Origin: an uncultured Candidatus Saccharibacteria bacterium
GTDB lineage: Bacteria; Patescibacteriota; WWE3; UBA101185; UBA10185
Reading direction: 5' to 3'
Length of the DNA stretch: 43,646 nt
NCBI GenBank assembly: GCA_964574405.1
Contig: CAZNNN010000003.1
Span: forward strand, 11,035 to 54,680
Every line of letters begins with the position of its first letter. The stretch's first letter is position 1. This document shows positions 21,293 through 22,702 of the stretch, piece after piece. A program made the position numbers and the translations under genes. The notes under the pieces were generated by a model. That model worked only from the letters and a program-made list of their open reading frames with translations. It was not told the origin of the DNA and did not search any database.

Positions 21293-21886
21293 TTAAGCTT
21301 CAAGTTCAAAAGGTTTTTTGTGTTTTTCTAACATCTGCCTTATAAAGTCCAAATGATCTTCCGCCTTCATGGTTTTGGCAAAAAATTCTTTTACCACATC
21401 CTCAATTACCGCTAGAGATTTTGTGTCAATTTCTTTCAGTCGACTTTTTTTATACGACTCCAGTTCTGCTGCCACTTTTAAATACTCACCAGCGATTTTG
21501 TCTCGCAATTCTTGTTCCGTTTGCAAGGCATCCTTGTGCAGTTCCACTTTAAAATCTTCCGCCCCTTTTAGTACATCGTCTTTAAATTCCGTGGTGGCGC
21601 TTTTTAGCTGTTCTTGCACAAAGTCCTTTGACTCGTCAACCGCTAAATCCGTTTCCTTAATCATTCTTTTAGCGCGTTCGTTGGATTCTTTAATAATATT
21701 TAGCGACTTATTTTTTGCCTCCTCTAAAATTACTAGCGCCTTTTTATAGGCTTGATCGCGGGAGTCTTCTTCAGCACGCTTTTTTTTGTCGTACATGGAT
21801 GCCAAAGCTATAAGCAAAAAGCCAAAGAAAGCAAAAATCATCAGTAAAATTAAGAGTAGGGCAATGATGGGCAGGTTAGAGTTCAT
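21293..21886 (-). CDS. Single-pass membrane protein with long charged coiled coil; ATP synthase subunit b-like architecture
   Basis: N-terminal TM (PIIALLLILLMIFAFFGFLLIAL) followed by about 160 aa of K/E-rich helix. It lies immediately downstream of the c-like gene, the same order as atpE-atpF. The call rests on architecture, not proven homology. Confidence 0.45.
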   Translation of the reverse strand: MNSNLPIIALLLILLMIFAFFGFLLIALASMYDKKKRAEEDSRDQAYKKALVILEEAKNKSLNIIKESNERAKRMIKETDLAVDESKDFVQEQLKSATTEFKDDVLKGAEDFKVELHKDALQTEQELRDKIAGEYLKVAAELESYKKSRLKEIDTKSLAVIEDVVKEFFAKTMKAEDHLDFIRQMLEKHKKPFELEA

Positions 21887-21904
21887 GATATTAATTTAGC
21901 ATGC

Positions 21905-22681
21905 CTAAAGTACCAAAATCAAGTATGCTAGAGCTAGACCTATAAGCATAACGCCAAAGGAAAGAATCATGTTAAAGATCATGGCGGTTCTAATGCTACC
22001 TTGCGCCAGAGGATTTCTTCCTAGAGCTTCTATGCTTCGCCCCGAGCTTTTTCCAAAGGTGGAAAAGCCAATAATAAAGGTGGCGGCAACAATTAGGGCG
22101 GCTAACATGTAGCGCAACGACTCTACGGGGTTTAGCAGGGGAGATAACGCGCCGGATCGTATGGCTGCCAGCAGATTAGTTTGGACATTGTTGTTTACAT
22201 AAGCCATTTTGGCTTCCACAGTGCACCAAAGAAGTTGGGGTACATTTGGATCGGTGGGAGTGAAATCTGCCAAAGCTTTGCCAATAACAAACCCTGTTTT
22301 ATCAGCTTTTTGCCCTACGCCGGCCACGCTGGAGGAAGTTATATAGTCGCCCTTTTTAATCTCGCCATTTGAGTTTGACACCAATATCTGCGCTTCGCCT
22401 GATTGCATAATGAGCTGGGTTCTTGTATCTGTGCTGTCGATTAAACTCAAAGAGGAACTTTCCACCACTACACCAAAAATTTCTGTGTCAAAAGATTCTT
22501 TGGCTAGGGTAAATTCTTCGTTCTTATGCGTAACAATGCTACCAGGCTTAGCGTCTTCGGTTACTATTTGCAGACTTGTGGCAGTTCCTCTAGCCATTCC
22601 TAGGTCTTCTGCTAAAACTTGTTTACAGGGTAAGACCATTGTTAAAGTTAAGATAAGCAACGCAACTTTGATTTTGGGCAT
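21905..22681 (-). CDS. Secreted/anchored protein: signal peptide, about 170-aa ectodomain, C-terminal two-helix hairpin resembling an F/V-ATPase c subunit
   Basis: The C-terminus [48 protein letters not shown] aligns by eye with the c-subunit loop E..ARQPE and helix 2. The carboxylate position is Phe. ATG 22681 (MPKIKVALL...) is preferred over the TTG at 22696. Confidence 0.5.
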
Positions 22682-22702
22682 ACTTTGAGTATACAATAAA
22701 GT

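Follow-up and report, generated by a model that had tools for sequence, protein, structure and literature searches.

A c-type hairpin without the ion-binding carboxylate, fused to a phage-fibre-type domain, in the very probable F-type ATPase of WWE3 and Microgenomates bacteria

F-type ATPases are usually held to couple ATP to ion flow through the interface between subunit a and the carboxylates of the c-ring. What could such an enzyme do if its c-type subunit had no carboxylate at the ion-binding position and no gene for subunit a lay nearby? This question is raised by two genes on the minus strand of a 43,646-nt stretch of DNA from an uncultured Candidatus Saccharibacteria bacterium of the WWE3 lineage (positions 11,035 to 54,680 of contig CAZNNN010000003.1, assembly GCA_964574405.1), the whole of which is called the window below. 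The gene c′ (21905–22696, minus strand) would encode an atpE-derived rotor subunit with an ectodomain, as judged from its open reading frame (ORF), its family and the atpE position that it holds in relatives. The gene b′ (21293–21886, minus strand) is assigned, on its family profile, its synteny and its ratio of nonsynonymous to synonymous substitution rates (dN/dS), to a divergent F-type peripheral-stalk subunit b of 197 amino acids (aa). A first-pass annotation made from the letters of the sequence had proposed these two ORFs, 18 nt apart, and had described the product of the first as a signal peptide, a Ser/Thr/Val-rich ectodomain and a two-helix hairpin; the ORFs were recovered by ORF calling, and the domain layout was borne out by the sequence and by an AlphaFold (AF2) model.

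The c-type hairpin and its ion-binding position

The c′ ORF has 263 aa from a TTG start at 22696, from which all residues are numbered here, or 258 aa from an ATG at 22681, the likely start, at whose position the majority of homologues begin. The AF2 model of c′, which was built with a 120-sequence alignment, has a mean pLDDT of 89 and contains a signal helix (residues 11–21), an all-beta ectodomain (residues ∼36–165) and two long helices (residues 190–227 and 229–262). The signal peptide of 25 aa (22607–22681, minus strand), which was read from the sequence and appears in the model as the helix just named, is the least conserved region of the protein, and the middle of c′ is rich in Ser, Thr and Val. 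The c-subunit-like hairpin occupies residues 190–263 (21908–22129, minus strand) and has its interhelix loop at residues 221–237 (21986–22036).

To collect relatives, the peptide pattern EA[LM]GRNPLA was looked for in a single genome of each species, which gave 255 species, and 80 loci were fetched. The named hosts among the fetched loci are candidate division WWE3, Levybacteria, Shapirobacteria, Amesbacteria and one ‘Nomurabacteria’, and the taxonomic side on which c′ relatives occur is WWE3/Microgenomates within the Patescibacteria. The family gave 705 matches in one search and 621 clusters at 50% identity (E ≤ 1e-30), is uniform in length, and includes several members that are already labelled COG0636 in JGI annotation. 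Conservation was read from the columns of 120 c′ members, and the carboxylate position was also scored as R+20, that is, 20 residues after the loop arginine, in 260 members, a set that includes representatives of 150 clusters (50% identity). Three members (P0252, P0260 and P0262) have 446–538 aa and carry an additional N-terminal region before the c′ module.

Is the hairpin truly of the c type? Pfam searches with c′ and with the isolated hairpin gave no match to PF00137 even at E ≤ 10. Since Pfam is silent on c′, homology is demonstrated here through NCBIfam, profiles against chains of the Protein Data Bank (PDB), hhalign and predicted structure. Five NCBIfam models matched c′ and every one of them describes F0 subunit c; the best E value was 7e-5 and all matches were sub-threshold, with TIGR01260 scoring 18–20 bits against a cut-off of 43.95. 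When the 120 members were searched, c-subunit models were those matched most often, the top model being found in 30 of the 120 at a best E of 3e-6. The seven best matches of a c′ family profile among PDB chains (HMMER) were all F-type c subunits (E 0.003–0.03). In hhalign, an alignment of the hairpin was compared with eight canonical c subunits, and the probability of 90.2%, E of 1.5e-6 and 69 gapless columns that were obtained are only as good as the accuracy with which these eight template sequences were entered. Moreover, Foldseek superposed the modelled hairpin on most of the listed c subunits with target-normalised TM-scores of 0.74–0.89, at 1.2–2.1 Å and 22–28% identity, and the superposed subunits come from cyanobacteria, chloroplasts, Bacillus PS3, mycobacteria, E. 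coli, yeast and mammals. Structure and profile matches of the hairpin were to F-type c subunits only. The c′ hairpin is a divergent yet genuine c-type hairpin, and the likeness to c subunits that the first-pass annotation had seen by eye is now backed by profile similarity as well as by superposition.

The alignments also fix the position of the missing carboxylate. In the hhalign register R227 corresponds to E. coli R41 and F247 to D61, and HMMER against PDB chains agrees with hhalign that F247 stands opposite the canonical carboxylate (E. coli D61, Spirulina E62), which is where the earlier reading had placed the ion site. The codon of Phe247, at the canonical position of the ion-binding Asp or Glu, is found at 21956–21958 (minus strand), and the residue lies within MILSFGVML. 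The loss of the carboxylate is family-wide: position 247 is Phe in 57 of the 120 members, Ala in 15, Ile in 14, Val in 13, Leu in 12, Gly in 5 and Met in 1, and Asp or Glu was found in none of the 120 at this position and in none of the 260 at R+20. The two transmembrane (TM) helices TM1 and TM2 are almost without acidic residues in the 120 members. Moreover, the GxGxGxG motif of helix 1 is absent from the whole family and is replaced by F207-x-x-G210-F211-x-x-F214-G215, in which only G210 and G215 are kept. Two rare variants were seen around the site: P0068 has Asp one residue past the carboxylate position (+21) and Tyr in place of Asn242 of TM2, and P0246 has Glu in place of Asn242.

In canonical c subunits, gamma and epsilon make their contacts with the polar loop. 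Its equivalent in c′, the cytoplasmic loop EALGRNPLA (22004–22030, minus strand), which corresponds to the E..ARQPE loop, is nearly invariant, with G226, R227, N228, P229, L230 and A231 each present in 119 of the 120 members and E223 in 111. The periplasmic ends of the hairpin are nearly invariant too (R195, Y196 and A257-Y-L-I-L261), and by column entropy the hairpin is the best conserved part of c′, at 1.1–1.3 bits compared with 2.0 for the ectodomain.

The ATPase operon and the search for subunit a

Does c′ belong to an ATPase? Neighbouring genes were identified by tblastn with the proteins of the window and by ORF calling on 70 of the loci. By tblastn, 73 of the 80 loci have F1 genes, namely alpha, gamma, beta and as a rule epsilon, downstream of c′ and in its orientation, so the pair is not one that commonly occurs in genomes without F1. 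In the 70 ORF-called loci the order is c′-b-delta-alpha-gamma-beta-epsilon, the same as in the canonical bacterial F1Fo operon atpBEFHAGDC from c onwards. The b′ gene of relatives lies 8–180 nt behind c′ in ∼70 loci and encodes 200–290 aa with, in almost all cases, one N-terminal TM helix; delta′ is a soluble protein of 150–185 aa. The operon is flanked in a conserved manner by a divergent giant gene with a MerR-type helix-turn-helix (HTH) domain, and by convergent L1-L11-NusG genes and an M50 protease gene (∼30 loci).

The members of this operon that are hardest to recognise are b′ and delta′, both of which are divergent, whereas alpha, beta, gamma and epsilon are recognisable as those of a canonical F1Fo. 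The b′ protein of the window has one hydrophobic N-terminal helix followed by a long charged helical part, and as a single sequence it gives weak matches only, to DivIVA and to F0 b at E 0.2, with PF00430 not reached. A profile of its family, made from a 54-sequence alignment of the gene after c′ in related loci, matches subunit b chains in the PDB at E 7e-8, 7e-6 and 7e-6. Judged by this profile, the 197-aa protein is a true but divergent b subunit, and the b-like character proposed for it in the first-pass annotation holds at the level of the family. The 151-aa unannotated gene at the head of the operon in the window, delta′ (41042–41497, minus strand), has no Pfam or NCBIfam match as a single sequence, and the profile of its family matches mitochondrial OSCP and bacterial delta in the PDB at E 1.5e-7; in relatives it stands between b′ and alpha. 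On the same kind of sequence evidence it is a true delta/OSCP, of a divergent kind.

The F1 operon of the window (37113–41497, minus strand) contains delta′, alpha (39559–41049; PF00006, E 3e-63), gamma (38740–39555; PF00231, E 1.5e-29), beta with its Walker motifs present (37349–38752; PF00006, E 6e-63) and a short epsilon of 79 aa (37113–37352; PF02823, E 9e-11, whole protein covered), all on the minus strand. It had been described as F1-only, which is right in that it has no a, c or b gene, but because delta′ stands at its head it is not strictly so. Epsilon consists of the beta-sandwich only and is without the C-terminal inhibitory helices, and its median length in 64 relatives is 88 aa. 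In many bacteria it is these C-terminal helices of epsilon that inhibit hydrolysis. The Walker A motif of beta is present in 66 of 69 relatives, the Arg-finger motif of alpha in 68 of 70 and a DELSEED-like segment in most of them. Thus the catalytic motifs are intact, as in a canonical F1Fo, and from its sequence F1 looks competent.

In the window, c′ and b′ are detached from this operon. Its F1 locus has flanks identical in kind to those of relatives, with the giant gene from 41629 beyond a 131-nt spacer, L1/L11/NusG at 35461–37116 and an M50-like gene at 34583–35233 (minus strand); it is the locus of the relatives minus c′-b′, and the pair sits ∼14–19 kb off, beside a sortase gene. The first-pass annotation had suggested that the pair may work with this F1 operon, ∼15 kb away, and the synteny lends that idea strong support, through the 73 loci in which F1 follows c′ and through the matching flanks. 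The upstream neighbour of c′ is, as had been stated, a divergent sortase (PF04203, E 2e-18), followed by a PEGA/beta-propeller protein. Only the window and its three closest relatives (L001–L003, 58–78% identity) have c′-b′ beside a sortase, which dates the move of the pair to a recent ancestor and leaves the sortase outside the system; for the same reason a sortase/PEGA link was rejected as a component of it. In the clade with the split arrangement dN/dS is 0.10–0.11 for c′ and 0.07 for b′, and hence both genes have been under strong purifying selection after the split.

Some details of these surroundings were also observed. The sortase, in the region 22703–24542, begins 7 nt past the TTG and 22 nt past the ATG of c′, and it overlaps the 3′-end of the opposite-strand gene with the PEGA domain and beta-propeller-like repeats. 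Inspection of c′ by eye, no motif search having been run on it, brought up no sorting signal of the LPXTG type, and no LPXTG-type substrate was seen in the vicinity. At the other end of the pair, tRNA-Arg(CCT) (21058–21132, plus strand) and tRNA-Pro(CGG) (21214–21290, plus strand) abut the 3′-end of b′, the end of tRNA-Pro being 2 nt from the b′ stop on the opposite strand, and this is one edge of the translocated block. Downstream of epsilon by ∼2 kb, past L1-L11-NusG, in ∼29 loci, lies a gene for a four-TM protein of the M50 site-2-protease type (HEFSHA ... NLIPVxPLDG), whose position is notably constant but probably plain synteny.

Is there a gene for subunit a? The neighbourhood searched was ±10 kb in the 80 loci together with the window, and no a gene flanking the pair was found in it, as the first-pass annotation had noticed for the window. 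A regular expression for the Arg motif of subunit a gave no match in six-frame translations of the 80 loci and the window. Between c′ and alpha there was no multi-TM ORF in 70 loci, and no a-like gene was among the eight multi-TM ORFs that were read within ±10 kb, of which five are M50-type protease-like, two are polytopic and akin to these, and the eighth encodes a different membrane protein. Three kinds of candidates were rejected: the ∼312-aa upstream ORF of Levybacteria is a Fic/DeoR-HTH protein, the 200–230-aa four-TM downstream ORF is M50 site-2-protease-like with HExxH, and the extra 120–145-aa ORFs of some operons have no TM helices. Kantor et al. (2013; PMC3812714), who described a complete WWE3 genome, took as a, b and c genes beside the ATPase operon that have no homology to known subunits, and mentioned no canonical set; their putative c resembles a conserved TM protein that OP11 and WWE3 encode in their ATPase operons. 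Comparison with the present operon indicates that the three genes of Kantor et al. are c′, b and delta, so that there is no a among them.

The ectodomain and the giant fibre gene

What does the hairpin carry on the outside of the membrane? The extracellular beta domain of c′ (22181–22606, minus strand), which is modelled at pLDDT >90, is of the phage tail-fibre, pre-neck-appendage or capsid-decoration type by its AF2 model, by Foldseek and by a hidden Markov model (HMM). Its Foldseek matches in the PDB are capsid-shell chains of Borrelia phage BB1 (8pkh, a procapsid) and of cyanophage Pam3 (8hdt) and phi29 gp12 (3suc), at E 7e-5 to 3e-4, and those in BFVD are the barrel of a pre-neck appendage protein and tail-fibre proteins, at E 2e-11 to 1e-8 and with a root mean square deviation of 2.1–2.5 Å over ∼135 residues. 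Going by the model, the domain would share the fold of these phage modules (phi29 gp12, BB1, Pam3), and the difference would be that in c′ the module is fused to a rotor subunit and is not a virion protein.

A nearer relative of the ectodomain is encoded in the loci themselves. The ectodomain HMM matches seven giant fibre-like proteins, of which six are encoded upstream of c′, and in most of them the match lies close to the C-terminus; the E values are 5e-24 in L078, 9e-24 in L045, 1e-19 in L073 and 8e-19 in L035, with further matches in L049, L076 and L025 and a range to 5e-9. The ectodomain and the fibre modules have in common the motif GDP[LI]T.SS..G.a.KA...G.i.G.AlE. Given this homology between the ectodomain and the fibre modules, c′ is a fibre-type module fused to a c hairpin.

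The giant gene itself is represented in the window by its 5′ part (41629–43646, plus strand, running off the window), which encodes a MerR-type HTH (PF00376, E 1e-6), a TM helix and a tail-fibre-like surface region. Homologues lie divergent from c′ and 200–1700 nt upstream of it in 42 of the 80 loci, and the proteins have 1300–2500 aa (for example L012 at ∼5000–9514, L045 at 2106–9743 and L073 at 2580–8720, all on the minus strand). The architecture is odd, in that a cytoplasmic DNA-binding domain is joined to a giant surface fibre. Many contigs (L001, L004, L009, L022, L033 and others) stop a few kb upstream of c′, at the long repetitive fibre gene, and it is probably this repetitive gene that fragments assemblies there. 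An ORF-poor region upstream of c′ is the antisense strand of the giant fibre gene; an rRNA operon was considered as the cause of this region and of the contig breaks and was rejected, Rfam having found none in six loci. In Levybacteria (L053 at 3133–4068, L068 at 3119–4057 and others) the gene of the ∼312-aa Fic and DeoR-HTH protein separates the fibre gene from c′ and has the orientation of the ATPase operon. Troman et al. (2026; bioRxiv 10.64898/2026.03.03.709456) reported that ATP synthase and tail fibre-like genes co-localise with the pam pilus operon across lineages of the Candidate Phyla Radiation (CPR), and read this co-localisation as coupling to ATP production; the c subunit was not examined in that study.

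Two further features of the window were noticed. A glycogen-type operon at 26699–33378 (plus strand) encodes two GT5 starch/glycogen synthases, two GH57 enzymes and Gal-1-P uridylyltransferase, and a closely similar operon is known from the RAAC2 WWE3 genome (Kantor et al. 2013; PMC3812714), a likeness that puts the window within WWE3 (Katanobacteria) or close to it. GC skew is positive in all 2-kb bins from 1 to 38 kb and slightly negative at 38–42 kb, where the ATPase genes lie on the minus strand; it seems to follow the coding strand and not a replication landmark, and strand compositional disparity is known from a Microgenomates genome (PMC7143001).

A rotary ATPase probably uncoupled from ions

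We hold it highly probable that c′ and b′ make up the membrane part of the organism's F-type ATPase and that c′ is descended from atpE. That this enzyme is not ion-coupled we regard as likely, and on balance we lean towards the view that it is an ATP-hydrolysing F-type machine, not ion-coupled, with a surface-exposed crown on its rotor. A mechanical or surface-directed output can be put forward only tentatively, and the full picture, in which WWE3 and Microgenomates turned their ATP synthase into a membrane-spanning actuator, with an ion-blind and a-less c-ring that is spun or indexed by F1 and a tail-fibre crown that moves surface machinery, is doubtful in its entirety and serves here as a working idea. 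In such a machine, c′ would oligomerise to a ring and dock onto gamma and epsilon through its conserved loop, and two copies of b′ with delta′ (b′2-delta′) would hold alpha3beta3 as a stator. With no carboxylate and probably no subunit a, H+ or Na+ could not be coupled by the known mechanism and the enzyme would be an ATP hydrolase only, which fits the intact catalytic motifs and the epsilon without inhibitory helices. Hydrolysis would then serve to rotate or position the ectodomains that crown the ring outside the membrane, probably in concert with the neighbouring giant fibre protein, in which the homologous module occurs, and possibly also with the apparatus of the Pam pilus, for example for host contact.

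Several observations count against the view of an ion-blind hydrolase. All similarity of c′ to c subunits lies under the curated family thresholds (TIGR01260, PF00137). Asn242 in TM2 is kept in 114 of the 120 c′ members and has no role assigned to it in this view, and the variants P0068, with Asp at +21, and P0246, with Glu for Asn242, place an acidic residue near the canonical site. The search for a covered ±10 kb, and an a gene or a canonical c gene elsewhere in the genome would tell against it as well. Moreover, productive transmission of torque is speculative, because an enzyme without subunit a would lack the usual anchor of the b′ stator against the rotor.

Some of these points would be explained if the enzyme were a conventional ion-coupled one, with subunit a encoded elsewhere or too divergent to be found, and with c′ either mixed with a canonical c in one ring or binding the ion in another way, for example via Asn242. 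The conservation of Asn242 fits such an enzyme, as does the reach of the negative results on a and canonical c, which is ±10 kb; reviews assume that CPR ATPases pump ions; and rings in which some hairpins are carboxylate-free are known from the V-ATPase and from c1 of Acetobacterium woodii, with 4bem being among both the PDB-profile and the Foldseek matches of c′. In V-type c and A. woodii c1, carboxylate-free hairpins coexist with carboxylate-bearing ones. The c′ hairpin is likewise carboxylate-free, but those are fused or co-assembled with their partners and work with an a subunit, whereas c′ shows neither a carboxylate-bearing partner nor an a in its operon and has an ectodomain in addition. 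The ±10 kb searched in the 80 loci and the window contained neither a nor canonical c, c′ takes precisely the place of atpE and is apparently the only c of the operon, none of the 260 members has a carboxylate at the canonical site, and in the WWE3 genome of Kantor et al. (2013; PMC3812714) the genes taken as a, b and c are without homology to known subunits, with a canonical set unmentioned. A conventional enzyme is hence unlikely in our estimate. We give still less credence to a static anchor, in which c′ and b′ would tether a soluble-type F1 beneath a surface structure and hydrolysis would be used for regulation or for conformational signals, without a turning ring. Such an anchor would agree with the replacement of GxGxGxG by F..GF..FG, with which a canonical tight ring is not assured, with the lack of a membrane rotor-stator interface when there is no a, and with an ectodomain that could bind the cell wall and block rotation. 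However, the loop for contact with gamma and epsilon is nearly invariant, the hairpin superposes closely on ring-forming c subunits, and gamma, epsilon, b and delta are all kept, a full set of rotor and stator parts that would be superfluous for a tether.

The pair might finally be a decaying remnant of Fo, or c′ a sortase-linked surface protein unrelated to F1, its likeness and that of b′ to c and b being vestigial or coincidental. In the window the pair does stand apart from F1, next to the sortase and the PEGA/beta-propeller protein, and the c-family scores are below threshold. The genes have nevertheless kept dN/dS at 0.07–0.11 after the split, the family comprises 621 conserved clusters of uniform length with the hairpin as its best conserved region, the sortase/PEGA setting is confined to the window and L001–L003 while 73 of 80 loci have the pair in the F1 operon, and inspection of c′ by eye, with no motif search run, showed no LPXTG-type signal. 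This last explanation is already largely refuted, and we consider it very improbable.

How does the proposed ion-blind ATPase compare with known systems? Relative to a canonical bacterial F1Fo, the c′ hairpin has the R-N/Q-P loop and the N-out/C-out topology, whereas c′ is without carboxylate and GxGxGxG and has a signal peptide and a 140-aa extracellular domain; furthermore, no a is found in or near the operon, epsilon is without its C-terminal helices, and in the window c and b are detached. Analogy may be drawn with the F1-like ATPases of mycoplasmas (the Type 2 gliding motor of M. mobile, the Type 3 MIB-MIP system, F1-like X0), in which F1 apparently does a job other than ion-coupled ATP synthesis, with odd membrane partners and a link to the surface. 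Their hosts are small, wall-associated or parasitic bacteria, like the present host. The mycoplasma clusters are extra paralogues beside a canonical F1Fo and are without subunits derived from c, b or delta. In contrast, the present operon appears to be the lineage's own and keeps a c-derived subunit, b, delta and epsilon; thus the mycoplasma precedent invoked in the first-pass annotation stands as an analogy but does not extend to composition. The operon of WWE3 and OP11 described by Kantor et al. (2013; PMC3812714) is of the same family, and in that work a, b and c were assumed to be present but divergent and the function was left open. A full-text literature search found no description of the anatomy of the c′ operon beyond Kantor et al. 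and the preprint on the Pam pilus. What is new beyond Kantor et al. (2013) and Troman et al. (2026) is the anatomy of the c′ fusion, the loss of the carboxylate, the identities of c′, b and delta, the absence of a from the neighbourhood, the shortness of epsilon and the kinship of the ectodomain with the fibre module.

Hundreds of species thus keep, under selection, an apparently competent F1 with its stalk and a c-derived subunit, without the carboxylate or a nearby a. If the proposed uncoupling from ions is true, the inference from ‘complex V present’ to synthesis or pumping linked to the proton-motive force would be wrong for these Patescibacteria. It would mean that a rotary ATPase has been redeployed in nature for a job other than moving ions, in a cell envelope that has no outer membrane, and it would provide a molecular lead on how surface fibres and pili may be powered in episymbiotic CPR cells.

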